Shown here piece by piece: positions 821 to 28,963 of a stretch of 28,963 nucleotides of DNA; the first letter of the stretch is position 1; every line of letters starts with the position of its first letter. The notes under the pieces were generated by a model that saw only the letters and a list, made by a program, of their open reading frames with translations, was not told the DNA's origin and ran no database searches. Source of the DNA: an uncultured Oscillospiraceae bacterium (GTDB lineage: Bacteria; Bacillota; Clostridia; UMGS1883); NCBI GenBank assembly GCA_964442035.1, contig CAYTWZ010000002.1:2211-31173 (forward strand), given 5' to 3'. A program made the translations under genes and the position numbers.

Positions 821-2200
821 ATGAATTTTATGATTGAAAAGCTTAAGGGTCTGTACAAGCAGTATCGGGAGCTTATTGCATATGTTATCGTTGGGGGAAT
901 GACTACAGCGGTCAATCTGGCGGTGTATTGGCTGGACAAGGAAATACTGGGCATCAGCCGCGATCCCAATGTGGTGATCGCGTGGATCGCATCGGTGATA
1001 TTTGCTTATTTTACAAATGCGCTGATCGTTTTCCGCAGCAAAAATACCGGCAGGATAAAGGAGTTTTTAAGGTTTGTGAGCAGCCGTTTGGCGTCGCTGG
1101 CGCTGGAGCTTGTGCTGATGAAGGTGTGCAATGACTTTATCGGTCTAGGAGAATGGTTGTCAAAGTACATTGTGGCAGTTGCTGTAATAGTCGCCAATTA
1201 TGTGTTGAGCAAGCTGTGGGTCTTTGCCAAACGGGAGACGGGGACTAAAAAAATGGGAAGCGCGGAAGATAAGGGCGTTATTCTTACAAAAAGCTGGGTG
1301 GTTTGCGCTCTGGCTTTTGTCTGCTGCGCACTTTGGGGCAGCGCCTTCCCTTGTGTAAAGATCGGCTACAGCCTGTTTGAAATATCGGCCTCCCACGTTG
1401 CGTCGCAGGTGCTTTTTGCCGGTGTGCGTTTCACTTTGGCGGGGGTGATGACCGTTATTATAGCCAGTATAGGGCAAAAACGACTTGTTTACCCCAAAAA
1501 CGCCGGAGAGGTAAGGGGAGTATTTAAGCTTTGTCTTTTTCAGACAGTTATACAGTATATTTTCTTTTACATAGGACTTGCCAGAACAGACGGGGTGAAA
1601 AGCTCCATCATTGAGGCATCCAACGTTTTTGTAGCCATACTTATTGCGGCGCTTGTATTTAAGATCGAAAAGCTGACAGCGGTCAAGGTGATAGGCTGCA
1701 TTGTGGGCTTTGCCGGAGTTGTGCTGATAAACTTAGGCAGCGGCGGCTTTGACGCCAGCATGAGCCTGCTGGGCGAGGGATGTATTTTCCTGTCTACGTT
1801 TTCCTATGCAATTTCCTCTGTGGTAATGAAGTCTTACTCCCAAAAATACGATACCGTGATGATGAGCGGGTGGCAGTTCCTTTTGGGCGGAGTGATACTT
1901 ACCTTGGCCGGACTTGCTTTTGGGGGAGGACTGCCGGTGGTATCATCTCAGGGACTGGCTATGCTTTTTTATCTGGCCTTTGTGTCGGCGGCGGCTTATT
2001 CACTTTGGGCGGTCCTGCTCAAGTACAATTCCGTGTCCAGAGTGTGCGTGTACGGCTTTATGAATCCTATATGCGGAGTTCTGCTTTCCACCTTGCTGCT
2101 TAATGAAAGGGGAAGCTTCGGACTTAAGGGACTTGTATCGCTGGCACTGGTTTGTATCGGCATATACATCGTAAACCGTCAGGAAGCAAAATTATGTTGA
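821..2200 (+). CDS. Fusion membrane protein: N-terminal GtrA-like 4-TM domain plus C-terminal EamA/DMT-type permease (two EamA repeats)
   Basis: Continuous frame 776..2200. Residues ~20-155 match the GtrA family (…IVGGMTTAVNLAVYWL…FYFTNALIVFRSKN…LRFVSSRLASLALE…). After the linker TGTKKMGSAEDK comes a ~10-TM EamA-like region. ATG candidates at 821 and 830 follow a GAGG box. Confidence 0.7.
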   Translation: MNFMIEKLKGLYKQYRELIAYVIVGGMTTAVNLAVYWLDKEILGISRDPNVVIAWIASVIFAYFTNALIVFRSKNTGRIKEFLRFVSSRLASLALELVLMKVCNDFIGLGEWLSKYIVAVAVIVANYVLSKLWVFAKRETGTKKMGSAEDKGVILTKSWVVCALAFVCCALWGSAFPCVKIGYSLFEISASHVASQVLFAGVRFTLAGVMTVIIASIGQKRLVYPKNAGEVRGVFKLCLFQTVIQYIFFYIGLARTDGVKSSIIEASNVFVAILIAALVFKIEKLTAVKVIGCIVGFAGVVLINLGSGGFDASMSLLGEGCIFLSTFSYAISSVVMKSYSQKYDTVMMSGWQFLLGGVILTLAGLAFGGGLPVVSSQGLAMLFYLAFVSAAAYSLWAVLLKYNSVSRVCVYGFMNPICGVLLSTLLLNERGSFGLKGLVSLALVCIGIYIVNRQEAKLC

Positions 2201-2224: not shown

Positions 2225-2290
2225 TAAAGTAAGGGATTTTTGAATAATTTGCGCTTGCGGCTTAGAACAACTCTTGAGGTTATTTTACTT

Positions 2291-2331
2291 ACAATCAGCG
2301 TTTTAGAATTAATCAGGGCTTCCTTAGGATA
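2291..2331 (+). promoter_or_regulatory. AATCAG-box element, copy S1 (aatcagcgttttagaattaatcag + ggcttccttaggata)
   Basis: Direct repeat AATCAG-N12-AATCAG lying ~35-75 nt upstream of the cps-like start codon. Related copies occur at ~24483-24506 (minus strand), 24604-24650 and 27710-27736. Confidence 0.35.
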
Positions 2332-2367
2332 AATTATAGGGAAAATTATTCCGGGAGATGATAATTT

Positions 2368-3675: not shown

Positions 3676-3688
3676 AGTGAGGTACACT

Positions 3689-4417
3689 ATGGACTATAAG
3701 CTGATTGATTTTCATACACATATTCTGCCCGGCATTGACGATGGAAGCAAAAATGCGGAAACGTCGGTCAAAATGCTCAAAAGACTGGAAGAACAGGGTG
3801 TAAGCGATGTTGTACTAAGCTCCCACTTTTACGCCTCCCAGAACAGCATTGAGGAATTTGCACTCCGGCGAGAAAAAAGCCTCGGCCGTCTTTTGGAAGA
3901 GCTTGATAAGACTCCCGTAAATATCAGGCTTCACCTTGGGGCGGAGATATTGTTCATGGATTACATTGACCGGGTAGAGGGCCTTAGTGAGCTTGCCATA
4001 GGCAAAACCAAATATATTCTGTTGGAGATGCCCTTTGTCAAGTGGAGCGAAAGGATGCTGGGAACAGTCTACAAGGTCATAGGCAACGGCTACATTCCTG
4101 TTATTGCCCACTTTGAGCGCTACATTCCCATACAGGGAAAGCTGGATTATATATATGAGCTAAAACGTATGGGCTGCATACTTCAGATGAATGCCGGCAA
4201 TTTTAAAGGCTTTTTCCGGAAGGGGAAGGCGTTGAAGTTTTTTGAAGATAATACTGCATCGCTTTTAGGAACAGACTGCCACAATCTGGACAGCCGACCT
4301 CCCGAGCTGAAGGCGGCCTATGAAGCAATAGGCCAGAAGCTTGGGGAAGATGAACTTCGGCGCATAAGCGCTGTAGGGGAAAAAATCCTCGAAAATTCCC
4401 GGACAGTGTATAACTAA
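3689..4417 (+). CDS. cpsB: Manganese-dependent protein-tyrosine phosphatase, PHP family (CpsB/YwqE-like)
   Basis: MDYKLIDFHTHILPGIDDGS… shows the HxH…DDG metal motif typical of CpsB/YwqE. ATG at 3689 follows GTGAGG with 6-nt spacing. Confidence 0.8.
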   Translation: MDYKLIDFHTHILPGIDDGSKNAETSVKMLKRLEEQGVSDVVLSSHFYASQNSIEEFALRREKSLGRLLEELDKTPVNIRLHLGAEILFMDYIDRVEGLSELAIGKTKYILLEMPFVKWSERMLGTVYKVIGNGYIPVIAHFERYIPIQGKLDYIYELKRMGCILQMNAGNFKGFFRKGKALKFFEDNTASLLGTDCHNLDSRPPELKAAYEAIGQKLGEDELRRISAVGEKILENSRTVYN

Positions 4418-4518
4418 ACGAAAGATGTCCCCCGTTGGCGGGCGATCCTTTCGTTTTCGGGGAGATCAATCTCCCACCGAAAACGCCCCATGACGGGCTT
4501 TCAGCCCTTATTGAACTA
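4409..4518 (+). promoter_or_regulatory. Conserved structured leader element, copy A (candidate cis-regulatory RNA or insertion-like repeat)
   Basis: Shares ~110 nt with 25391-25502. Both copies start TATAACTAAACGAAAGATGT and end GGGCTTTCAGCCCTTATTG. The P1 stem aaacgaaag/ctttcgttt encloses a small hairpin; a second hairpin is ttcggggagat-caa-tctcccaccgaa; a third is gggct-ttc-agccc. Confidence 0.45.
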
Positions 4519-4577
4519 AAAACAGGAGAACATTCGGTGGGAGAAAGGCTTTGTATTTTTAAAAGGAGGTATTTGAC

Positions 4578-5339
4578 ATGGGTGACGATTTTACCCTCAG
4601 TGACAAGCAAATTCGTGAAAACCGAAATCGGGAGTACCGCAAAGATCCGCCGGAGCTTATCTTAGTCATAATATGCGTGGCCGCTGTAGTGACGGGTGTG
4701 TTTTTCCCGGGGGAAATGTATGATTCGGTGTTTGGTACCGAGCTTATACTCAGCAATCTCATCCGCGTGTTCTTGGCTGTACTTGGTTTTATATTCGGAG
4801 TGCGAATTATTGTTCCTAACCATAAGATCACTTATATTTTTGGCGGAATAGTGATTCTTGTGTCCGTCATACTGGCCTTTTCTGCTACGCCTGAGGCCAT
4901 GATTGCGTTTGCGATGGGCTTCGCGTCTATGATCGTATCTGCGGCAAGACCGTCGGTGCTTGTAATTACGGCAGCTGCTGTGATACTTGTGGAAATAATA
5001 AAGCGGCTGTATATTATATTCGGCCCCGGACAAAAGGCTTCCCGTGGGGGAAAGGTATTGACCCGTGTATCTGCAATCTTGGGCGGGCTTTCCATATTTA
5101 TTGCGCTGCTGATGCCTATGGTCGATCAGGAGTATCCCGGCATGGCAACGGTCGTGCTTTGGATAGTTGGGCTGATATGCGCCGCCGGCGGGTTTATTAC
5201 AGGAGTTGTTGTAAAGCAGCCGTCATATAATACCGGGGACTGGCTCCGGCTCATAGCTTCAGCGGTGGGTATGGGAATACTGCTTTCCTGTATTACTACA
5301 ATATTCGGCCTCCCCGTGCTCGACTTTATGAGGTGGTAA
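4578..5339 (+). CDS. Uncharacterised polytopic membrane protein (about 6-7 TM)
   Basis: RBS AAAGGAGGT lies 8 nt before the ATG. The protein is hydrophobic throughout and no recognisable family motif was found. Confidence 0.6.
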   Translation: MGDDFTLSDKQIRENRNREYRKDPPELILVIICVAAVVTGVFFPGEMYDSVFGTELILSNLIRVFLAVLGFIFGVRIIVPNHKITYIFGGIVILVSVILAFSATPEAMIAFAMGFASMIVSAARPSVLVITAAAVILVEIIKRLYIIFGPGQKASRGGKVLTRVSAILGGLSIFIALLMPMVDQEYPGMATVVLWIVGLICAAGGFITGVVVKQPSYNTGDWLRLIASAVGMGILLSCITTIFGLPVLDFMRW

Positions 5340-5427
5340 GGAATAATAAAAGACTTCCTTTCGGACTCTTGAGATAAGGTCTGAATTGAATACTAAAAAA
5401 CTTTGTTTATTAAGCCGCAAATGAACA

Positions 5428-5469
5428 GACCCCCAAAGGTTAGACCTGAAAATCTAACTTTTGGGGGTC
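5428..5469. terminator. Bidirectional terminator hairpin between convergent genes
   Basis: Stem of ~18 bp: gacccccaaaggttaga / tctaacttttgggggtc. It lies between the plus-strand membrane protein gene and the minus-strand S41 peptidase gene. Confidence 0.55.
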
Positions 5470-5501
5470 ACGTCATCTGATAGGGAGTATTTTATTGCCT
5501 G

Positions 5502-7034
5502 TTATTTAAAATACGCCAGCGCTGTCTGCATCTGTATGTCAACTACCTTGTTCATATTGTATTCGTAGTCGTTCAGCGCCATGGCTGTGTAGAAATCTAC
5601 CTCACCGGTGATCTCGATTTCGCTGTACCGCTGGAATACCCTTACAGCCGCCTCAGTGCGGCTGTTGTATATTCCGTCCACTTCGCTGTCGGCCAGCAGC
5701 TTGAGGGCGTTAAGCCTTTGCTCCACCCCAAGCCTTGTGCTGTCGGACTCCAGCATGTCTGGGGCAAGTAATATGTCTGCAAAATCCTCCTCATTTACGG
5801 GAGAAACCTCGTTTTCAACCGCGTAATCCGGGGTAAGTCCTGTGCCGTGGATGCGCTGATCGGAGGGGCTGTAATATTCGCCTATCGTGAACTTCAGCCC
5901 GCTGCCTGTGGGGGTATGCATTATTACCTGCATACAGCCCTTGCCAAAGGTTTTGGTTCCCATCAGCTTTGCGGCATTGCGGCTTTGAAGAGCCATTGCC
6001 AGAAATTCGCTGGCGGATGCGGTGTTTTCGTTTACAAGCACCAGCATTTCGTAGCCCGGAGCGTTGTAGTTTTCGGAGTACAGATCCACATTGTTTGCTT
6101 CATCCCGATATTTGAGCTTGCCGATAATTCCGGCTGAGATCAGCTTACGGGCTACCTCAATGGCCGCGTCGATATCTCCGCCTCCGTTGTCCCTCAGATC
6201 GATTATAACATTGTTTATGCCCTGATTTTTGAGCTGGTCAATGTAGCCGTCAAAGTCCTCAGGCAGAGATGCGGTGAAGGAGTCAACATCGATGTAACCG
6301 ATTTTGCGCCCGGCCTCGTTTTCAATGATATCCATGGTGGAATGACTTTCGGTGACCTTTTGGCGTACAGCACGTACATACAAGAGCTCATCGCCGCGAA
6401 CAATGCCTATATCCACAAAGGTGCCTTCCTCGCCAATGATCAGCTCGCGTGTGGCGGCAGGCTCGTAATTGGAGGTGTCAACTCCGTCCACCGATACGAT
6501 CTGATCGCCTACCTGAATGCCGGCCATCTCGGCTGAGCTGCCGGAAAACACATTCTCGATAACTGTGCCGCCCTTTTGTATAGTCATAGTTACACCTATG
6601 CCGTAAAATGAGGCATTGTAGTAATCAAGCTGCTGGGAGTAGAGCTCGGGAGGGTAATACTCCGCATACTCATCCCCAAGGGTCTTTACCATAGTTTCAA
6701 GGGCAAGATCAATGTCAAACCGACCACCGTTGTCAATGGTGGCACAGATCACGTTGTAAAGCAGGTTTTCGTCAGACACTCCGTAATAGTAGTTGTCGGC
6801 CAAAAGGTGGGCGTAATCCCTGATAAGGTTCTTTTGGCGGAATGCGGAAAGGGCATTTTTGAGCTTGGGATTGTCACTCTCTATTTCTGTGCTTTCCGTA
6901 ATTGCTGGAGTATCCGCCTCGGCTTCTTCGGTAGCGGTAGGTGTGTTGACCTCCGTGCTTGCGGGGCTCTCGGCCAAGACAGGGGTAAAAATCAGCGTCA
7001 GCGCCAGCAGCAGTGATAAAAGTTTGTTTTTCAT
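5502..7034 (-). CDS. S41 family C-terminal processing peptidase (CtpA/Tsp-like) with PDZ domain and C-terminal peptidoglycan-binding domain
   Basis: Signal peptide MKNKLLSLLLALTLIFTPVLA. PDZ motif GIGVTM…GSSAEMAGIQVGDQIVSVDG. S41 core motifs GGGD…LVNENTASASE…TFGKG. C-terminal PG_binding_1-like segment (…LKLLADSEVDGIYNSRTEAAVRVFQ…). Confidence 0.85.
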   Translation of the reverse strand: MKNKLLSLLLALTLIFTPVLAESPASTEVNTPTATEEAEADTPAITESTEIESDNPKLKNALSAFRQKNLIRDYAHLLADNYYYGVSDENLLYNVICATIDNGGRFDIDLALETMVKTLGDEYAEYYPPELYSQQLDYYNASFYGIGVTMTIQKGGTVIENVFSGSSAEMAGIQVGDQIVSVDGVDTSNYEPAATRELIIGEEGTFVDIGIVRGDELLYVRAVRQKVTESHSTMDIIENEAGRKIGYIDVDSFTASLPEDFDGYIDQLKNQGINNVIIDLRDNGGGDIDAAIEVARKLISAGIIGKLKYRDEANNVDLYSENYNAPGYEMLVLVNENTASASEFLAMALQSRNAAKLMGTKTFGKGCMQVIMHTPTGSGLKFTIGEYYSPSDQRIHGTGLTPDYAVENEVSPVNEEDFADILLAPDMLESDSTRLGVEQRLNALKLLADSEVDGIYNSRTEAAVRVFQRYSEIEITGEVDFYTAMALNDYEYNMNKVVDIQMQTALAYFK

Positions 7035-13775: not shown

Positions 13776-16700
13776 TTATTTGCTTACTGACGTCAATGCG
13801 CATGAGGATGAGCCTGAGTACGTGCCGCCGGTCACTATTCCGTATGGCTCTTTCCCCGTGAAAGCGCCACCTGTTACGCTCCCTCCGTAATTTAATGTGT
13901 ATGAGCCGCTTTTGATTTCAGGTGTTGATATAAATACCCATGCGTATGCTTTTGACGGTACATATGTCACAATTTCATCCCCGCTTGAATTTGTTAGCTT
14001 GAACGCCTTACCCGCTGATTGTGATGAAAAGCCGCCTGAACCGCCCCACATACCGCTGCCGGAGGAACTTGACGAAGTCACAACGTAATACTGCTTCGCG
14101 CTGTCGGGAGTTATCGCCATATCGGATGAACCTGCGCCAATTACAGTACCTCCTGTAATTGAAAGTGTGTCGCCGTTGTTATCGCCTATGTCAAACACGC
14201 CGTTCCCGCCGCTTGTGGGGCCGTTTACAAGAAGCGTACCGCCCGAAATTAGAGCGCTGCCGTTGCTGTCAAAGCCATCGCCCTCTGCTTCGATATAGAC
14301 CAGTCCGCCGGATATTTCAACATATCCGTATGTCGACGAATCCTCACCGCCCCAGTTGGGACCGCTGTTCCAGCCTTGATTGCCGCCGTTCCAGCCTTGA
14401 TTGCCGCCCGGCCCCGCTAAAAGCTCAACTGACAAAGCGGAAACGGTATCAATGTCATATGCGCTGTCTGTCGGCTTGTCGCCTGCCGCGTTTACACCGT
14501 CGTCAGAGGAAACGATTCTTGTTTCACCGCCTAAAACATATATATTTGCGGCTTCTATGCCTTCATAGCTCTTTGTAATATTTATATCGGCGTTATCGCT
14601 TATATAAAGATAGCTGTCGCCGTGTATCCCATCGTCGCCTGTGGCGGCGGTTATGCTTCCGCCGATTATGCGCACAGTATGGTTTGAATGAACGGCGTCA
14701 TCATAGGTGTTTATATTGAAAGTGCCGCCACTGATATAAACAAGGTTGCCGCCCTTTACGCCCTTACAGCTGCTCGCCGCCTCGGGATTGTTTGCCGAAA
14801 CGGTCTGGGGCGCACCGCCGTATGCGGTCAAATCAAATGTGCCGCCGGAAATATTTGTTATGTTCTCGCTTTGTATACAATCCTGCTGGGAATTTACAGT
14901 GATATTGCCGTCTGTAACAACAACATTTCCGGTCCCGCACTGTATTCCGTCCTCGCTACAGGTTATGTCAAGAGTTCCTCCGTTGATATCAATTTCACCC
15001 TCTACATAGGCGAGAACCGTTGCTCCGTCTGTGTCGTATATTACCTCATTTACTTGAATTCCCTCCAAGGCTTTGGTGATCGTTATATTTGCGCCGCTAC
15101 CTATTGTAATGTTTTTTACCGCTTTGATTCCGTCCTCACCGGCCGACGCGACAATTGTGCCGCCTGTGATCGCCACACAGCCATCGCCCTCGGCAGGCGT
15201 GCCACTTGTTAACGTCGTGTCCTCAAGGTATGCAATGCTCGAAGCATTAGCCTTGATAGCTTCACCCGCGGCGTTGATCGTTATGTCGCCGCCAGTGATC
15301 GTGAGAAGAGTATCAGCTTGTATGCCGTCCCCGTTTGATACAGTGCCGTCCGTGCCTGTTGTTGTTTTTGAGGTTATATTTATTGTGCCGCCGTTTATCG
15401 TAACAGAACCGCCGGAAACGTATTCATTTGTCAGCGCGTCAATTTCAGGATCCTGATCGGACTTGATTCCGTCTCCTCCGGAAACAACCGTTATCGAATT
15501 GTTTTTCTTTGTGATTTTTACGGATTGGTCACCCTTTATGCCGTTGTTTGCGGCAGTAACATTTAAATCGCAGACGCCAATTTCGATGTCGTTCTTACAG
15601 CGTATGCCGTTCCCGTAATCGGATATTGCGTTAAGCGTTCCCTCACCCTTTATTGTAAGGTCATTCTTGCTGTAAATTGCTGTTGTATCCCCGTCCGATG
15701 AAGCTGATCTGAATGTGCTTTCGTTTTCTGTGGGAACAAGTGTTACCGTTCCCTTTAAACCGTCAAACGCGTTCCCCGTTGTGCTTGTTACGCTTACACC
15801 GTCAAGATTGACGGTGATTAAATCTGTCTTTTCGGAGGAATTAACTATTATCTGTCCATCGTTTAATGTGCCCTCAACGGTATATTCTCCCGCCGCCGTA
15901 ATTGTAACGGCAGTTCCAGATACGGTTACATTTTCAATGCCATCGGCATTCACGCTGTCACCCATAAGATGTATTATTCCGTCACCCGCGGAAATTACGG
16001 GATCCTGTGGAGATTCCTCCTCAGTCGCTTTGGTGGTGACGGTAACAGTGATATCGCCTGTTATCTTGGTTATTCTGTATGTATTTTCCCCAAGCTCGGA
16101 GGGCAGCTTTAGATTTTTGTAATTTGTTGACGGGGTCACTTCAACAGATTCGATCTCGTAGCCCTCATCCGCGGTAATCTTAAAATTCACCTGTCCGTTG
16201 CCGGAGGTATCGATTTCGCCGGTGTCGCCGCTTCGCGCGTATGCCTCTGTAACAAACTGCTCATCGCCTGTAAACACCTGCGTGTCAGACACGGCTATTG
16301 ATGCGTGGGAATCGGTCTCAAATGTCGCTTTAAAGCCCTCCGCTGTCGTTGCCTTGGTGGTGACGGTAACAGTGATATCGCCTGTTATCTTGGTTATTCT
16401 GTATGTATTTTCCCCAAGCTCGGAGGGCAGCTTTAGATTTTTGTAATTTGTTGACGGGGTCACTTCAACAGATTCGATCTCGTAGCCCTCATCCGCGGTA
16501 ATCTTAAAATTCACCTGTCCGTTGCCGGAGGTATCGATTTCGCCGGTGTCGCCGCTTCGCGCGTATGCCTCTGTAACAAACTGCTCATCGCCTGTAAACA
16601 CCTGCGTGTCAGACACGGCTATTGATGCGTGGGAATCGGTTTCAAATGTTGCTTTAAAGCCCTCCACAGGAACAAACACATCACTTAGCGGCTCAAGGGT

Positions 16701-17033
16701 CAGTACGCCGTTTTCTGTTTTCCAGAAAAAAGCTTTTAAAACATCGCCGTCATCTTTTAATGTGCTGTTAAAGACAAGCGACTTGTTGCCGGTTCCGTTT
16801 GTTTCTTCGGATACCACAATGCCCTTGAGCTGCCCTAAAGAGTCATATACCGCAACAATTCCTTTCCCGCTTTCGTCTGAGCCTTTGCTTACGACCATTG
16901 ATATATTTCCGTTCTCGTCAATATCCAATGAGGTAATTGAGCAGGCAAGCTCTGCCGCCTCCGCGGCAATTGAAAAAACCATCAGCGATAAAACGATGAT
17001 AAAACATAGAACCTTTGTGGAAATGGATCTCAC
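13776..17033 (-). CDS. Large secreted right-handed beta-helix repeat protein (Cthe_2159/DUF4353-like carbohydrate-binding family) with two identical 108-aa Ig-like modules
   Basis: Signal peptide MRSISTKVLCFIIVLSLMVFSIAAEA. Dozens of GDDGI/NGDGI/xDGIxx beta-helix turn motifs. A GWNGGNQGWNGGNQGWN low-complexity linker. An exact tandem 108-aa repeat (GFKATFETDSHASIAVSDTQ…TTKAT). Confidence 0.8.
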   Translation of the reverse strand: MRSISTKVLCFIIVLSLMVFSIAAEAAELACSITSLDIDENGNISMVVSKGSDESGKGIVAVYDSLGQLKGIVVSEETNGTGNKSLVFNSTLKDDGDVLKAFFWKTENGVLTLEPLSDVFVPVEGFKATFETDSHASIAVSDTQVFTGDEQFVTEAYARSGDTGEIDTSGNGQVNFKITADEGYEIESVEVTPSTNYKNLKLPSELGENTYRITKITGDITVTVTTKATTAEGFKATFETDSHASIAVSDTQVFTGDEQFVTEAYARSGDTGEIDTSGNGQVNFKITADEGYEIESVEVTPSTNYKNLKLPSELGENTYRITKITGDITVTVTTKATEEESPQDPVISAGDGIIHLMGDSVNADGIENVTVSGTAVTITAAGEYTVEGTLNDGQIIVNSSEKTDLITVNLDGVSVTSTTGNAFDGLKGTVTLVPTENESTFRSASSDGDTTAIYSKNDLTIKGEGTLNAISDYGNGIRCKNDIEIGVCDLNVTAANNGIKGDQSVKITKKNNSITVVSGGDGIKSDQDPEIDALTNEYVSGGSVTINGGTINITSKTTTGTDGTVSNGDGIQADTLLTITGGDITINAAGEAIKANASSIAYLEDTTLTSGTPAEGDGCVAITGGTIVASAGEDGIKAVKNITIGSGANITITKALEGIQVNEVIYDTDGATVLAYVEGEIDINGGTLDITCSEDGIQCGTGNVVVTDGNITVNSQQDCIQSENITNISGGTFDLTAYGGAPQTVSANNPEAASSCKGVKGGNLVYISGGTFNINTYDDAVHSNHTVRIIGGSITAATGDDGIHGDSYLYISDNADINITKSYEGIEAANIYVLGGETRIVSSDDGVNAAGDKPTDSAYDIDTVSALSVELLAGPGGNQGWNGGNQGWNSGPNWGGEDSSTYGYVEISGGLVYIEAEGDGFDSNGSALISGGTLLVNGPTSGGNGVFDIGDNNGDTLSITGGTVIGAGSSDMAITPDSAKQYYVVTSSSSSGSGMWGGSGGFSSQSAGKAFKLTNSSGDEIVTYVPSKAYAWVFISTPEIKSGSYTLNYGGSVTGGAFTGKEPYGIVTGGTYSGSSSCALTSVSK
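16026..16673. repeat. Exact tandem duplication, 2 x 324 bp, inside the beta-helix protein gene
   Basis: Two consecutive identical 324-nt units, also visible as identical antisense ORFs at 16198.. and 16522... They encode two identical 108-aa modules. Confidence 0.85.
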
Positions 17034-24451: not shown

Positions 24452-24482
24452 CGTTGTTTCCCCCTTTTGTTTTCAGAAAACG

Positions 24483-24506
24483 CTGATTGATTCTAAAATG
24501 CTGATT
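24483..24506 (-). promoter_or_regulatory. AATCAG-box element, copy S2 (minus strand: aatcagcattttagaatcaatcag)
   Basis: Lies ~30-55 nt upstream of the GTG start of the nucleotidyltransferase gene. It is followed by the palindrome GTTTTCTGAAAAC. Confidence 0.35.
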
Positions 24507-24603
24507 GGCGGGAAAATTTTTCTCGCAGTAAGGCAAAAAGCGCATGATTACTTGCTGTATTATGGGCTTCTTTAACCGAACTGCGGGGGAAATAACCGTC
24601 AAG

Positions 24604-24650
24604 CAGCGTTTTAAGCCGTAGACGTGAATTAATCAGAGCTTCCTTGATAT
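24604..24650 (+). promoter_or_regulatory. AATCAG-box related element, copy S3 (cagcgtttta…gaattaatcagagcttccttgatat)
   Basis: Shares the gaattaatcagRgcttcctt arm and the cagcgtttta segment with S1. It sits in a 400-bp divergent intergenic region. Confidence 0.3.
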
Positions 24651-24795: not shown

Positions 24796-24824
24796 CTTGA
24801 CAATCATATGACCGTGTGATATAA
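24796..24824 (+). promoter_or_regulatory. Sigma-A promoter with extended -10 (TTGACA-17-TGaTATAAT) for the HTH-nfeD-floT operon
   Basis: ttgaca…gtgtgatataat. TSS ~22 nt before the ATG of the HTH gene. Confidence 0.55.
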
Positions 24825-24852
24825 TCATATCATAAGCAAAGAGGGTGATCAG

Positions 24853-25395
24853 ATGTATGTGCTTCCCGGAACAAATATTGAAGTAGGGGAGCTGTCCTTT
24901 GACAGCGTTAATTCGCTGCTGAATTCAATTTTTCTCACAGGAGGACTGGTGCTTAGTCAGGTGGCAGGAATGACTGACTGTGCTCCACATGTGGTGCAGA
25001 ATTGGGTCAAAAGAGGGTTTGTTTCGCCGCCGGTGAACAAGAAATACAGCAAGCGGCAGTTTTGCAGAATAGCCTTTATCAACTTTTTGAAGGATGTGAT
25101 GCAGATCGACAAGGTCACGGCGCTGATGGAATATATTAATGGGGCGCTGGATGATGAAAGCGATGATCTGGTGGATGACTGTACGCTGTACTGCTACTTT
25201 GCTCAGGTAATAGGACAGCTGACGGACTTCCGCCGGGACACCATAGAGTCTGTGGTGGAAAAGTCGGTCTCCGGAGGAGGAGACAGCTATATCCAAGTCA
25301 GGCTCAAGGCCACACTTATAGTTATGGCCACCTCTTACGGAGCGGCAATGCTTCGAAGCAGGGTCAATTTGCTTATAAGTCAGTTGGATATATAA
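24853..25395 (+). CDS. DUF1836-like protein with N-terminal MerR-type HTH
   Basis: LSQVAGMTDCAPHVVQNWVKRGFVSPP resembles the MerR HTH. The overall pattern matches the Firmicutes DUF1836 family (assignment tentative). Confidence 0.6.
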   Translation: MYVLPGTNIEVGELSFDSVNSLLNSIFLTGGLVLSQVAGMTDCAPHVVQNWVKRGFVSPPVNKKYSKRQFCRIAFINFLKDVMQIDKVTALMEYINGALDDESDDLVDDCTLYCYFAQVIGQLTDFRRDTIESVVEKSVSGGGDSYIQVRLKATLIVMATSYGAAMLRSRVNLLISQLDI

Positions 25396-25502
25396 CTAAA
25401 CGAAAGATGTTCCCGACTATATGGGCGGTGAGCGACCCTTTCGTTTTTCGGTGGGATATCAATCTCGAAACGTTGAAAGAGGGCTTTCAGCCCTTATTGG
25501 AA
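25391..25502 (+). promoter_or_regulatory. Conserved structured leader element, copy B (between the HTH gene and nfeD)
   Basis: Same 5' (TATAACTAAACGAAAGATGT) and 3' (GGGCTTTCAGCCCTTATTG) ends as copy A, with the same P1 stem. The internal hairpins are variable and covarying. It overlaps the stop codon of the upstream gene. Confidence 0.45.
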
Positions 25503-25523
25503 AAAAAGGGGGTCAAGGGGATA

Positions 25524-26162
25524 ATGTTCATTGTGAATTGGTGGAATGCCATGACAGCGGCTCAGCACGGGTTTTTGTATGTAGCGGTTCCGGCTACTTT
25601 AGTACTGGTCATTCAGACACTGTTGCTGATGTTTGGCATAGGCGACAGTGACGGTGATGTGCCGGACGGGGATATTCCCGATGTGGATGTTGGCGATGGA
25701 AATTTTCAGGCGGTGGAGGATTTCTCCAACTGCGATGTTTCCGGTGACTTGGACGGTGATCTGAGGATATTTACGGTCAGGGGTATGGTTGCGTTTTTCT
25801 CGGTGTTTGGCTGGTCAGGCGCGGCAATACTCGGAGGCGGACTTCCGCTGTGGTTTTCCGTTGTGGGGGCTGTAGTGGCGGGAGCTGCCGCAATGCTGGC
25901 GGTGGCGTTTATCGTCAAGTTTGCCCTTAATCTTCAGCAGTCGGGCAATATCAATCCCCGCAATGCCGTGGGTAAGTCCGGAACGGTTTATATAACTGTT
26001 CCTCCGGCTCGAAGCGGCAGCGGAAAGGTCAATCTTGTGCTTCAGGAGCGCTACTCCGAAATGGAAGCTGTTACCGATGGAGAACAGCCAATTTCGCCCG
26101 GTCGTGAAGTAACTGTAGTTGGAACTACAACAATGGGAACACTTATAGTTAGGGAAAAGTAA
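25524..26162 (+). CDS. NfeD-like membrane protein (YuaF family) with C-terminal OB-fold
   Basis: ATG at 25524 follows AAGGGGG. Two to three TM helices and a C-terminal beta-rich domain (…GKSGTVYITVPPARSGSGKVNLVLQERYSEMEAV…VTVVGTTTMGTLIV). The upstream in-frame extension to 25407 is non-coding by comparison with copy A. Confidence 0.7.
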   Translation: MFIVNWWNAMTAAQHGFLYVAVPATLVLVIQTLLLMFGIGDSDGDVPDGDIPDVDVGDGNFQAVEDFSNCDVSGDLDGDLRIFTVRGMVAFFSVFGWSGAAILGGGLPLWFSVVGAVVAGAAAMLAVAFIVKFALNLQQSGNINPRNAVGKSGTVYITVPPARSGSGKVNLVLQERYSEMEAVTDGEQPISPGREVTVVGTTTMGTLIVREK

Positions 26163-26184: not shown

Positions 26185-27561
26185 ATGACTGTTTTAATTC
26201 TGATCTGCGTTATCGTTGTGCTGCTTTTGTCAACGATCATGCTCATCGTCAGCCGTTACCGCAAATGCCCCTCTGACAAGGTAATGGTCATCTACGGTAA
26301 GGTGGGGGCTAACAGCGACGGCACAAGCCGTAGCGCCAAGTGCATCCACGGCGGCGCGGCCTTTATCTGGCCGGTGATCCAGGCCTACGAATATCTGGAT
26401 CTTACGCCTATTTCCATAAGCGTTGATCTTAAAAACGCACTGTCACGGCAAAATATACGTATTGACGTACCAAGTCGCTTCACAGTAGGCATATCCACAG
26501 AAAACGGCATTATGCAGAATGCCGCCGAAAGGCTTTTGGGACTTAAGCTGTCCGAAATTCAGGAGCTTGCCAGGGATATCATATTCGGTCAGCTACGTCT
26601 TATCATTGCGACTATGGATATTGAGGAGATCAATACCGACCGTGATAAGTTCCTTGAGGCTGTGAGCCGCAATGTGGAAAGCGAGCTTAAAAAGATCGGT
26701 CTGCGTCTCATCAACGTAAACGTAACCGACATCACTGACGAAAGCGGATATATCGCTGCTCTTGGTAAGGAAGCGGCAGCCAAGGCCATCAACGATGCCA
26801 AGCAGTCCGTTGCGGAAAAGGATCGTGACGGCGCCATTGGTCAGGCCAACGCCCAGAGGGATCAGCGTATCTCCGTATCTGAAGCAAACAGCCTTGCCAT
26901 AACCGGTGAGAACGAGGCTCAGATAACCATTGCCAAGTCTAACGCTGTTCGCCGTGAGCAGGAGGCCGAAGCTCTTCGCAGGGCTACTGCCGCCGAAAAA
27001 ATTCAGGAGGCAAAAGCCCTTGAGGATGCCTACGGTGCCGAAAAAGAGGCCGAAATGGCCCGTGCCGCCAGAGAGCAGGCCACTCTTGAGGCTGATGTGC
27101 TCGTAAAGGCCGAGATCGAAAAGCGTCAGAAGGAAATCGCAGCCGCCGCCGAAGCGGAGCAGTTGCGTATTAAGGCACAAGGCGAGGCGGACGCCATATT
27201 TGCAAAAATGGCCGCCGAGGCAAAGGGTATGCAGGAAATTCTTACCAAGCAGGCGGAGGGCTTTGAAAAGATCGTTGCCGCCGCCGGAGGCAACGCATCC
27301 GATGCCATGAGGCTTATGCTTGCCGACAAGATGGAGGAGCTTATGCGCATACAGGTCGATGCCATCAAGAATATTAAGATCGACAAGGTCACTGTATGGG
27401 ACAACGGTAAGGAGGGCAATTCCACAGCCAACTTTATCAGCTCTATGGCTAAAGCTGTGCCTCCTATGAGCGAACTGTTCGACATGGCGGGCATGAAGCT
27501 GCCGGAGTATCTTGGCAAGAAAAAGGAAGCGCCCGCCGCCGACGCGGAAGCAGTGGGGTAA
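26185..27561 (+). CDS. floT: Flotillin / SPFH (band 7) family protein
   Basis: N-terminal TM helix, SPFH domain, and a long Ala/Glu-rich coiled-coil with EA repeats. Immediately downstream of nfeD, matching the Bacillus yuaF-floT arrangement. Confidence 0.8.
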   Translation: MTVLILICVIVVLLLSTIMLIVSRYRKCPSDKVMVIYGKVGANSDGTSRSAKCIHGGAAFIWPVIQAYEYLDLTPISISVDLKNALSRQNIRIDVPSRFTVGISTENGIMQNAAERLLGLKLSEIQELARDIIFGQLRLIIATMDIEEINTDRDKFLEAVSRNVESELKKIGLRLINVNVTDITDESGYIAALGKEAAAKAINDAKQSVAEKDRDGAIGQANAQRDQRISVSEANSLAITGENEAQITIAKSNAVRREQEAEALRRATAAEKIQEAKALEDAYGAEKEAEMARAAREQATLEADVLVKAEIEKRQKEIAAAAEAEQLRIKAQGEADAIFAKMAAEAKGMQEILTKQAEGFEKIVAAAGGNASDAMRLMLADKMEELMRIQVDAIKNIKIDKVTVWDNGKEGNSTANFISSMAKAVPPMSELFDMAGMKLPEYLGKKKEAPAADAEAVG

Positions 27562-27631
27562 AGCTGTAACCTAAGGAAACGCTGAATAATTTACGCCTAC
27601 GGTTTAAAACAAACCTTGGCGATTAATTCAC

Positions 27632-27661
27632 CGGCAGCTCGGTTAAAAAGCCGAGCTGCCG
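27632..27661 (+). terminator. GC-rich hairpin downstream of floT (probable terminator)
   Basis: cggcagctcgg-ttaaaaag-ccgagctgccg, an 11-bp perfect stem. No U-tract follows. Confidence 0.4.
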
Positions 27662-27709
27662 CAAGTATTCATGTGCCTTTTGCCTTGCCTCGAAAAAATA
27701 TTCTTTGCC

Positions 27710-27736
27710 AATCAGCATTTTAAAATTAAACAACGC
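27710..27736 (+). promoter_or_regulatory. AATCAG-box related element, copy S4 (aatcagcattttaaaattaaacaacgc), immediately upstream of a -35 hexamer
   Basis: Matches S2 at ~20 of 26 positions. It lies ~12 nt upstream of the TTGACA of the LRR-protein promoter. Confidence 0.35.
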
Positions 27737-27748
27737 TTCATTTAATAT

Positions 27749-27863: not shown

Positions 27864-28963
27864 ATGAGCAAAGGAAAGCTTTTGCCGATACTGATGAGTC
27901 TGACAATGTTGGGCTCATCGGTCAGTATCCCCGTTTCCGCGGCGGAATACACCGACAATCAGATAGCGGACACGGTAGCCCGTGTAGCTGTGACGGAGAT
28001 TTTTGCCACGGATGTGAGCGAACCCTCTGAGGATGAATTTATTGCTCCTGCCGAAGATGTAGAAGAGAACGAGGCGGAAAAAGCGTCACAGGAGGATGCT
28101 TATGTCATGACAGACAGCGATGTTAAACTGTTCGCGGATTCATTGACATATGAAAACCTGCAATACGAAGTAAATGACGGCAATATTACAATAGTGGGCT
28201 GCAATGACGGTGTGGAAAGTATTGATATTCCCGCAACTATCGATGGGGAAGCAGTTACGAGTATTTCCGCTTACGCTTTCAGCGGACATTCAGATTTAAA
28301 AAAGCTCACCATACCGGAGGGAGTGACATATCTCGGGGCTTACTTTTTGACGGGAACAGCCGTAGAGAGGCTGACCATCCCCTCCACAGTGACGGAATCC
28401 GGGGGCAGCATCAACGGCGCGTTGGCCGGTTCCGCGGTTACAGAGCTGACCTTTGCGCCGGGCACGGTAAAAATTCCGAATAACATTTGCCGCAGCGATT
28501 CGCAGGGCAGTCTGCTTGAGATAGTCAATTTGCCGGACGGAGTGGAGACTATCGGAGATTGTGCTTTTACAAACGCCAAGAGCCTGACAAGGTGTGACCT
28601 CCCGGAGTCCGTTGTTACGATAGGAAATAACGCTTTTCAGAACTGCGTCAGTCTGGACGGCGAGATAAATATTCCCGCCAGTGTAAAAACTATCGGAGAT
28701 TACGCATTTGATGGCTGCAAAAGTATTACAAGCGTAAAAACCAACCTGAACACAAGCTCCGAGTGGGTAGGGACGGATAAAGTTTCCTTTTCAGCAACAA
28801 TTGGAAAGATGGCTTTCCGGAACTGCACTTCAATGAACGGTTTTGAGCTTGCCGCCAGCGTGAAAACGCTGAATAACTATGCGTTCGAGGGCTGCTCATC
28901 CCTGAGCGAGCTCACCATACCGGAGGGAGTGACATATCTCGGGGCTTACTTTTTGACGGGAAC
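27864..28963 (+). CDS. BspA-type leucine-rich-repeat cell-surface protein (5' partial; continues beyond the window)
   Basis: RBS GAAAGAAGG, then ATG at 27864. Signal peptide MSKGKLLPILMSLTMLGSSVSIPVSAA. Repeated LRR_5-type units (…IPEGVTYLGAYFL…, …LPDGVETIGDCAFTNAKSL…, …IPASVKTIGDYAFDGCKSI…). Open to the window end. Confidence 0.7.
   Translation, partial: MSKGKLLPILMSLTMLGSSVSIPVSAAEYTDNQIADTVARVAVTEIFATDVSEPSEDEFIAPAEDVEENEAEKASQEDAYVMTDSDVKLFADSLTYENLQYEVNDGNITIVGCNDGVESIDIPATIDGEAVTSISAYAFSGHSDLKKLTIPEGVTYLGAYFLTGTAVERLTIPSTVTESGGSINGALAGSAVTELTFAPGTVKIPNNICRSDSQGSLLEIVNLPDGVETIGDCAFTNAKSLTRCDLPESVVTIGNNAFQNCVSLDGEINIPASVKTIGDYAFDGCKSITSVKTNLNTSSEWVGTDKVSFSATIGKMAFRNCTSMNGFELAASVKTLNNYAFEGCSSLSELTIPEGVTYLGAYFLTG
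28305..28963. repeat. Internal direct repeat in the LRR gene: 53 nt or more identical at 28305-28357 and 28911-28963, 606-nt period
   Basis: ctcaccataccggagggagtgacatatctcggggcttactttttgacgggaac occurs twice. The second copy is truncated by the window edge. Confidence 0.8.

Follow-up and report, generated by a model that had tools for sequence, protein, structure and literature searches.

A hairpin-rich repeat at two gene ends of an uncultured Oscillospiraceae bacterium: probably a dispersed insertion that rebuilds the host stop codon

Two repeat copies and their empty sites

We analyzed a stretch of 28,963 nt (hereafter the window) from an uncultured Oscillospiraceae bacterium (GenBank assembly GCA_964442035.1, contig CAYTWZ010000002.1, positions 2,211 to 31,173), which holds two copies of a repeat of about 105 nt. 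Copy A (4409-4516) follows a gene for a CpsB_CapC tyrosine phosphatase, and copy B (25391-25502) lies in a three-gene cluster, between a DUF1836/MerR_1 gene and a gene for a 212-aa membrane protein that is followed by a Band_7/FloT-like flotillin gene (Table 1). The two copies are 73% identical over about 120 nt (BLAST within the window, E=6e-14), and their alignment has zero differences in four blocks, TATAACTAAACGAAAGATGT, CCTTTCGTTTT, ATCAATCTC and GGGCTTTCAGCCCTTATTG. The hairpin that separates the blocks TATAACTAAACGAAAGATGT and CCTTTCGTTTT differs between the copies by substitutions and an 8-nt indel. The 19-mer GGGCTTTCAGCCCTTATTG occurs exactly twice in the window, and still twice when three mismatches are allowed, compared to a chance expectation of 0.01. 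The end sequences of the element are TAAACGAAAGATGTCCCC... on the left and ...GGGCTTTCAGCCCTTATTGAAY on the right. A third copy was not found in the window by BLAST, nhmmer or a covariance model, in agreement with the original prediction made from this DNA, which had proposed an inserted element present there in two copies only.

Both loci have clean empty sites in one close relative. The empty DUF1836 site is on contig L094, taken from GCA_037193305.1 and belonging to the same 90% DUF1836 protein cluster; the empty cps site is on contig L092 of the same assembly, with a CpsB that is 91% identical. The flanks are 88.5% and 91.6% identical to those in the window, the latter value being that of L094, and the intergenic distances in the relative are 57 nt at the cps site and 19 nt at the DUF1836 site. 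At site A, L092 reads ...GGACAGTATACAGG-TAAAAAACAGGAGG... (junction ...GTATACAGG|TAAAAAACAGGAGG...), and the window, with 102 nt more, reads ...GGACAGTGTATAAC-TAAACG...(102 nt)...TTATTGAAC-TAAAAACAGGAG.... At site B, L094 reads ...CAGTTGGATATGTGAAAAGGGGGTCAAGGG... (core ...GGATATGTGAAAAGGGGG...), and the window, with 106 nt more, reads ...CAGTTGGATATAT-AACTAAACG...(106 nt)...CCCTTATTG-GAAAAAAAGGGGGTCAAGGG.... More distant relatives, whose DUF1836 proteins are 48-75% identical, have 16-22 nt from the DUF1836 stop to the next start (L001-L005, L029 and L096-L098), and the counterparts of the cps locus of copy A in L092, L093 and L099-L101 are also without the element. Altogether, the element is missing from the orthologous sites in at least eight relatives. 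These alignments show copies A and B to be independent insertions that post-date the split from the relative with about 90% identical flanks, in line with the inserted repeat that had been proposed. Since close relatives lack the element, copy B is best seen as a genomic hitch-hiker and not as a conserved flotillin switch.

We compared the ends of the host proteins with those of their orthologs, 11 for each protein. Both the DUF1836 protein and CpsB end at the C-terminal alignment column of their orthologs, so that neither is truncated nor extended. The proposal that the element cuts short the host open reading frames (ORFs) was therefore not supported. The same end residue in orthologs had also been considered a mark of coincidental similarity, if combined with absence of the element elsewhere; coincidence is excluded here because the element is present in other genomes.

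Table 1. Positions of the repeat copies, their parts and the adjoining host features. Positions are those of the window unless a contig is named.
Feature	Position	Strand	Basis or remark
Copy A	4409..4516	+	Between CpsB-like gene and 253-aa ORF; A/B alignment, L092 empty site, covariance model R1 101.3 bits
Left AACTAAA direct-repeat copy (7 nt)	4412..4418	+	Holds present CpsB stop TAA 4415-4417
Right AACTAAA direct-repeat copy	4514..4520	+	Displaced original AAC TAA 4514-4519, then original spacer AAAACAGGAG
Copy B, outer limits	25391..25502	+	A/B alignment, L094 empty-site alignment, covariance model R1 92.6 bits
Left-junction motif TATAAC of copy B	25391..25396	+	Includes DUF1836 stop TAA 25393-25395
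P1 stem, copy B	25398..25446	+	AAACGAAAG 25398-25406 with CTTTCGTTT 25438-25446; encloses P1a 25409-25436; fold, RNAalifold, pair counts
Decayed P2 hairpin, copy B (GGGATATCAATCTCG)	25453..25467	+	Absent from minimum-energy fold
P3 hairpin GGGCTTTCAGCCC with tail TTATTG, copy B	25476..25499	+	Weaker extension: upstream AAAGA pairs with tail
CpsB_CapC tyrosine phosphatase gene, upstream of copy A	3677..4417	+	Pfam; same end residue as orthologs
Sigma-70-type promoter of three-gene cluster	24797..24825	+	TTGACA, 17-nt spacer, TG-extended TATAAT
DUF1836/MerR_1 gene, upstream of copy B	24853..25395	+	Pfam; same end residue as orthologs
212-aa membrane protein gene, 'nfeD-like' by position only	25524..26162	+	Ortholog N-termini
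Band_7/FloT-like flotillin gene	26185..27561	+	Pfam Band_7 2e-27
Copy in L065	6591-6710	-	Between AraC-type gene and rnc
Copy in L049	4149-4293		TAA of AATAAC is stop of 606-aa glycosidase-like ORF; GNAT gene next
Long form in L085	58-255		Extra hairpins and internal second CCCTTATTGAAT; upstream of M50 protease gene
Short form (43 nt) in L043	767-809	-	TATAAC-CAAACGCTGAATAAT-P3 (5' junction and P3 only)
Short form (43 nt) in L050	1199-1241	-	TATAAC-CAAACGCTGAATAAT-P3 (5' junction and P3 only)

Boundaries, structure and surroundings of the element

The two copies overlap the upstream stop codons in different frames, as had been read from the window. Both carry TATAACTAA at the left end; the CpsB ORF closes at its second TAA and the DUF1836 ORF at its first (Table 1). 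We considered two models for the exact limits of the element. In the first (M1), the element is AAC...CCCTTATTG, placed right after TAT, giving 4412-4513 (102 nt) for copy A and 25394-25499 (106 nt) for copy B. At site B, M1 splits an ancestral GAT AT(G/A) T|GA, with the host T and the AA of the element forming the present TAA; compared to L094, which reads GATATGTGA at the left junction with a TGA stop at the same codon as the DUF1836 stop of the window, the cost is a longer A-run plus a single substitution. At site A, the element would now provide the final codon and the stop (AAC TAA), the original pair being displaced to the right end, where L092 has AGG TAA AAAACAGGAGG. In the target-motif model, insertion requires ATAAC as a host motif and the element runs TAAACG...TTATTG(G)AAY, with copy B at 25397-25502. 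The stop at site A would then be the first three bases of the element and the stop at site B would be host sequence, with L094 off the pre-insertion site at three positions. Parsimony over the two empty sites slightly favours M1. On either model, the element physically supplies at least one of the two stops and the frame closes at the ancestral codon. The idea that the element donates a stop codon was thus upheld in that its 5' end supplies stop nucleotides in two frames; how much it supplies depends on the boundary model. Because insertion takes place at or next to a stop codon (TAT|RAA) and the element brings AAC-TAA at its start, the stop is rebuilt at the same codon and the length of the host protein does not change.

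We examined the ends of the element for target duplications and inverted repeats. Copy A is flanked by the direct repeat AACTAAA, the kind of duplication for which a check had been suggested, but in the other five copies no more than 3-5 nt are shared, at inconsistent offsets, giving no regular target duplication. Terminal inverted repeats did not exceed those in shuffled sequences for copies A and B and the copies in L065 and L049, and two other copies exceeded most shuffles. In copies A, B and L065, the 5' end and the reverse-complemented 3' end had no match longer than 5 nt, a length that 107-154 of 300 shuffles also reached.

The predicted fold consists of three or four hairpins on the sense strand with some compensatory changes. 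In the consensus, P1 encloses a variable P1a and is followed by P2 (UUCAGC-GGGAGAU-NCA-AUCUCC-UGCUGAA), by optional extra hairpins and by P3 (GGGCU-UUC-AGCCC, extended by pairing of AUGA with UUAU). Copy B has lost the 3' strand of P2 that copy A retains. Across six sequences, 89% of the cells were paired, compared to 45-53% in slid controls. Compensatory change was seen at five pairs in these six sequences only, and transposon-end hairpins would give the same signal. The structure belongs to the sense strand, as RNA or single-stranded DNA, because 18 G-U cells would be A-C on the other strand. Folded singly, copy A reached -37.2 kcal/mol (z = -3.2) and copy B -36.9 kcal/mol (z = -2.2), and copy A has an alternative pairing in which CGTTTTCGG is either in P1 or with CCGAAAACG. 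The P1a hairpin is less conserved than the loop and junction sequences and has no similarity to P3 (GTCCCCCG..CGGG against GGGCTTTCAGCCC). Terminator scans did not call an intrinsic terminator within 4409-4516 or 25391-25502; the UUAUUG tail of P3 takes part in pairing itself, and the sequence after it is A-rich. In folds of the copies, the ribosome-binding site falls outside the predicted helices. A hidden small ORF in the element was also considered and rejected, as copy A would encode 22 codons without a ribosome-binding site.

We searched for relatives of the element in other organisms. A scan of JGI metagenomes with the 19-mer gave 61 loci, five of which have true homologs. The copies outside the window come from five other metagenomic organisms and sit among unrelated genes. 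The sources are ODFW01001024.1 (L065), ERZ1673695 (L049), ERR13998775 (L003) and ERZ824473 (L043 and L085). Full-length homologs score 92-128 bits with the covariance model. Besides these, long and short forms were recovered (Table 1); the 43-nt copies in L043 and L050 follow a PrsA-like gene, and that in L050 also precedes an M50 protease gene. A second copy in L065 lies 7 kb from the first and has a P3 variant, GGGGCAAGCCC, followed by TTATTGGAAT. A profile search recovered a divergent copy in L003 and L004, a relative with a 66% identical DUF1836 protein. In L003 the copy occupies the 5' leader of a methyltransferase gene, downstream of a strong promoter and upstream of the ribosome-binding site, and its P3 is altered in sequence with the pairing retained. 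The copy density is 2 per 29 kb in the window, 2 per 13.7 kb in L065 and 1 per 14 kb in L003.

At all seven independent loci the element is oriented with the neighbouring genes. The left junction is ATAAC in the six copies compared, with right ends TTATTG(G)AAY, and the seventh, divergent copy in L003 has only a similar GATAAAC or GAAAACT at its left junction. Judged from these loci, insertion is shown to be orientation-specific, with ATAAC at the left junction in six of seven. The element begins no more than 3 nt from a stop codon in four of the seven loci, and the other three copies are not at stop codons. The genes downstream are functionally unrelated (an unknown membrane protein, the nfeD-like protein, GNAT, M50 protease, RNase III, a zinc-ribbon protein and a methyltransferase). 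The neighbours of the copies are housekeeping genes, with no mobility gene among them, and the genes beside the 19-mer in the metagenomic matches are likewise housekeeping or unrelated, e.g. for a radical-SAM enzyme or a sulfatase.

The distribution outside these loci is sparse. In roughly 130 kb of sequence from the other relatives, the covariance model R1 found zero copies. Scanning with the 5' blocks found no copy among 185,579 species genomes (a set that does not include the source genome); the lone match, in a Gemmataceae metagenome-assembled genome (MAG), is unlike the element and was rejected as unrelated. Blastn against plasmids and phages gave no match to the element, and the 19-mer had 0 matches in viral contigs. 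The stem-only pattern AAACGAAAG...CCTTTCGTTT did match viral contigs, and all 23 matches were rejected as unrelated palindromes or terminators. A Logan contig whose CpsB is identical to that of the window stops 52 nt into the element (L095, 6693-6744), and in L043, L050 and L085 the same flanks are joined in differing combinations around the repeat. Such contig ends and shuffled flanks could be assembly breaks or chimeras at a multi-copy repeat, or real recombination between copies. In L003, a called 68-aa gene without a Pfam match (1082-1288, minus strand) takes in most of the element copy together with a terminator and the strong promoter (TTGACC, 17-nt spacer, TG-extended TAAAAT), and is probably a spurious call.

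The 19-mer GGGCTTTCAGCCCTTATTG turns up in other phyla too, in several multi-copy repeat families that are unrelated (L031-L091). One of these families has about 22 matches in three samples, with ACGTTG-rich upstream sequence. Other matches are in REP-like clusters of high-GC contigs, with an inverted partner AAGGGCTGAAAGCCC, downstream CCTGGGGCGTTGCC and CCTGGGGCG-type palindromes about 20 nt downstream. About seven metagenome matches, in coding sequence, look like chance.

The host genes were examined in the window and in relatives. The order of a DUF1836/MerR-like gene, the 212-aa gene and a Band_7/FloT-like gene is kept in every relative fetched, so the helix-turn-helix-nfeD-flotillin operon of the original prediction is confirmed in its order and, by Pfam, in its first and last genes. 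The label 'nfeD' is a positional guess, since the 212-aa product has zero Pfam or NCBIfam matches, permissive thresholds included. The flotillin gene matches the NCBIfam FloT model at 1.5e-47, under the equivalog cut-off. An SdpI-family gene sits between the 211-aa gene and the flotillin gene in L096 (7195-7554); the content of the cluster is therefore not invariant. The promoter proposed ahead of the first gene is present, with 12 of 12 consensus positions, and is conserved in L001-L005 and L029. The database-called start of the CpsB_CapC gene gives a 242-aa product.

The true start of the 212-aa gene is ATG 25524 and not the ORF-list start at 25407, as indicated by ortholog N-termini and the L094 alignment. 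The sequence AAGATGT, conserved in the element, gives copy B an ATG (25407) in frame with the 212-aa gene, and because of this ATG, ORF finders lengthen the nfeD-like gene by 39 codons. A weak promoter-like site with 9 of 12 matches covers the right end of copy B and its flank (25497-25525; TTGGAA, 17-nt spacer, GATAAT). It is unlikely to be useful, since its -10 and the start codon of the 212-aa gene overlap.

Other repeats were seen in the window. A second dispersed family of about 170 nt has copies at 27567-27740 (plus), 24478-24650 (minus) and 2225-2345 (plus). The two long copies share 77% identity over 169 nt, and an internal deletion shortens the third. Each copy is oriented with the adjacent gene; one begins right after the -10 box TATAAT (2219-2224) of the cps promoter and another begins 5 nt past the flotillin stop, after GTAAC. 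This family is absent from all loci of relatives. The 43-nt short form of our element and the 5' part of the second family (27577-27590) have AAACGCTGAATAAT in common; the two families therefore exchange modules, in a mosaic manner like that of bacterial interspersed mosaic elements (BIMEs). Two 300-nt direct repeats (16024-16323 and 16348-16647; 99% identical, 324 nt from start to start) lie inside a 1085-aa ORF on the minus strand (13776-17033), which suggests a recently duplicated domain of a large protein. A 55-nt exact repeat (28303-28357 and 28909-28963), cut off by the end of the window, lies inside a gene starting at about 27864, the L001 ortholog of which encodes an LRR_5 protein. A 27-nt inverted repeat (5418-5479, 81% complementary, 8-nt loop) between the convergent genes 4578-5339 (plus) and 5502-7034 (minus) resembles a bidirectional terminator-type hairpin.

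Passive repeat or RNA regulator

Our best reading is that the element belongs to a family of dispersed repeats, not described before, in uncultured Oscillospiraceae-like Clostridia, whose members are about 43-200 nt long, rich in hairpins, modular, non-autonomous and specific for site and orientation. We consider it probable that what was inserted is a dispersed repeat, carried as passive cargo in operon transcripts. The recent insertion, the patchy distribution, the unrelated neighbours, the modular forms, the constant junction, the strict orientation and the lack of inverted termini and duplications all argue for a non-autonomous dispersed repeat and against a dedicated regulator. Such a repeat would spread at the DNA level by means of an enzyme that acts in trans and reads the sense-strand hairpins and the junction motifs. 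The pattern would match that of the single-strand HUH (Y1) transposases that act on palindrome-associated transposable elements (PATEs) derived from IS200/IS605 and on repetitive extragenic palindromic (REP) elements. If the dispersed-repeat reading is correct, it is conceivable, and on balance doubtful, that an HUH-type enzyme moves the element. Within the operon, the element would merely be co-transcribed and would not gate the downstream genes. At most, its stable stem-loops right after the stop could mildly affect mRNA decay or the termination of upstream translation.

Several points weigh against this reading. No transposase or recombinase was found in the fetched loci, where the neighbours are housekeeping genes, and only two copies per 29 kb were seen here. 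The left and right hairpins are unlike each other, contrary to typical IS200/IS605 ends. The empty site in L094 is without ATAAC, and the target-motif version therefore needs three lineage-specific junction changes. The uniform co-orientation and the position of the L003 copy would be compatible with a function at the RNA level as well.

A cis-regulatory RNA is the alternative closest to the original prediction. A leader, an attenuator or a binder of a protein or ligand, duplicated into operons, would control read-through into the downstream genes, including the nfeD-like and flotillin genes, or their translation. The agreement in orientation with the downstream gene at all seven loci speaks for it, as do the promoter-proximal position in the L003 leader, the sense-strand structure with its G-U pairs and some covariation, the conservation of loops and junctions above that of P1a, and the alternative structures of copy A. 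Against these stand the same operons without the element in the relative with about 90% identical flanks and in all other relatives, the unrelated functions of the downstream genes, the lack of a U-tract terminator (UUAUUG being paired) and of any sequestration of the ribosome-binding site, the loss of half of P2 in copy B, and the lack of an Rfam family match. We consider such a regulator quite unlikely. The gate on read-through into the flotillin genes is not supported: the operon lacks the element in a relative whose DUF1836 protein is at least 90% identical, no terminator was called, the downstream genes are unrelated and P2 is decayed in the very copy concerned. A milder version, in which a repeat of mobile origin was co-opted, also receives little credit from us. 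Its stem-loops, 2-5 nt past the stop, would protect the upstream mRNA from 3' exonucleases or stall terminating ribosomes, setting the ratio of upstream to downstream expression. In E. coli, REP hairpins near stop codons lower the output of the upstream protein. The starts within 3 nt of a stop at four of seven loci and the stable predicted folds (-37 kcal/mol, z-scores -3.2 and -2.2) are consistent with such a role, and mRNAs that contain REPs are known to be substrates for which RNase R and PNPase are needed (PMC12320835). The proximity to stops is equally explained by an insertion preference for TAT|RAA, which contains TAA or TGA, and the three copies away from stop codons do not fit the co-opted role.

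A more specific form of the mobile repeat is unlikely as a whole. In this form the element would be a non-autonomous HUH-type transposon that homes to stops through TAT|RAA or ATAAC and carries its own AAC-TAA 'stop cassette' for silent insertion, and its right-end hairpin, GGGCUUUCAGCCC-UUAUUG, would be one module with the 3' hairpin of Acido-Lenti-1 and of the REP-like clusters in Bacteroidales-like and high-GC contigs. There is hardly any chance that the two copies are a coincidence or a pair of unrelated intrinsic terminators. A hairpin with T-rich sequence is common between genes, and the stem-only pattern matches unrelated terminator-like palindromes in viral contigs, but the match between the copies, the two occurrences of the 19-mer and the bit scores of the homologs refute it, and no terminator-like site was called in either copy.

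Read as a passive dispersed repeat, the element reveals no new regulator of flotillin genes. It shows how a small repeat can settle in very short spacers within operons without harm, by landing on a stop and rebuilding it. For annotation, the element lengthens the nfeD-like ORF, underlies the probably spurious call in L003 and breaks or scrambles metagenomic contigs, and a family model would clean MAG annotation in the clade. Two features are mildly notable: insertion at stop codons stays silent because the element brings its own AAC-TAA, and one of its hairpins recurs, across phyla, in an orphan Rfam family.

Comparison with known systems

REP and BIME elements of Enterobacteria and other bacteria are mobilised by RAYT, a Y1 HUH transposase, and together with RAYT they are the other known case of a single-strand HUH insertion signature besides IS200/IS605 and PATEs. 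Our element is like them in being a short, structured intergenic repeat of imperfect, bulged palindromes that forms mosaics of modules, in its location in transcribed spacers and gene 3' ends within operons, in its patchy occurrence among close relatives, and in its lack of terminal inverted repeats and target duplication. It differs in being longer, with three or four unlike hairpins in a fixed order and a constant ATAAC left junction, and neither a GTAG-type head nor a RAYT gene was seen in the loci examined.

IS200/IS605 elements and PATEs insert beside a transposon-adjacent motif without duplication; the transposon-encoded motif at their right end is related to it, and one strand carries subterminal hairpins (PMC10055086). 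Our element likewise has subterminal hairpins on one strand, no target duplication, and an insertion specific for site and orientation by a left motif; ATAAC would be the transposon-adjacent motif, and TTATTGAAY, the related motif at the right end, would be the transposon-encoded one. The predicted excision joint of copy A (GTGTATAAC|TAAAAAC) restores a plausible ancestral gene end. Unlike the ends of IS200/IS605, which are similar and bound by one TnpA, the left and right hairpins of the element are dissimilar, and the empty site in L094 reads TATGTGA and not ATAAC. The element had no match to tnpA, tnpB or omega-RNA, and a regex search for the HUH motif across about 680 kb of fetched loci gave no candidate ORF for a Y1/HUH transposase.

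The element shares its size class, its intergenic, co-transcribed location, its insertion polymorphism among close relatives and a potential to alter mRNA processing with miniature inverted-repeat transposable elements (MITEs) such as Correia of Neisseria, and with BOX and RUP of pneumococcus; with BOX it also shares a modular structure. It differs from classical MITEs in that terminal inverted repeats and regular duplications were looked for and not found, and its orientation is uniform where theirs is random. Islands that integrate at tRNA genes or gene 3' ends offer an analogy of outcome and not of mechanism: here too, the inserted DNA copies the displaced end (AAC TAA) and leaves the product unchanged, but the element is only about 100 nt, lacks an integrase and rebuilds 3-7 nt. 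Integron attC and Xer/dif-type sites were rejected, as the ends, compared by eye, are unlike RYYYAAC/GTTRRRY and the copies are not in cassette arrays. The EAR/epsC antitermination element (RF01735) was considered since copy A follows cpsB, and was rejected because of the lack of an Rfam match and of conservation in cps loci.

Searches of Rfam 15 with the whole window at the gathering threshold and with both copies at E<=10 gave no meaningful match. The closest link is to RF01687, Acido-Lenti-1, which copy A matches at 13.5 bits (gathering score 37) over model positions 28-45 only, with no match for copy B. Acido-Lenti-1 is a little-known orphan two-hairpin motif with 89 representatives; it is multi-copy, with some copies in tandem or 200 nt apart, and is sometimes near group II introns (Weinberg et al. 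2010, PMC2864571). P3 of the element with its flanks is near-identical to the 3' hairpin of Acido-Lenti-1, AUG(U/A)C-GGGCUU(C/U)CAGCCC-U (seed sequences ...AUUAUGUCGGGCUUCCAGCCCU; element AAUGACGGGCUUUCAGCCCU), and the 3' hairpin GGGCUUUCAGCCC-UUAUUG is that of some Acido-Lenti-1 instances. The exact 19-mer lies inside above-threshold Acido-Lenti-1 matches (38.6-42.8 bits) in contigs L064 and L090, taken as Bacteroidales-like. The element comes from a different phylum, has the additional P1, P1a and P2, and lacks the 5' hairpin CCYAGSGCU..GCURGG. Because of the missing 5' hairpin and the score far under the gathering score, it shares a module with Acido-Lenti-1 and is not a member. If the link is true, a 16-year-old orphan 'sRNA' family would be explained as the end of a transposon or REP element shared across phyla.

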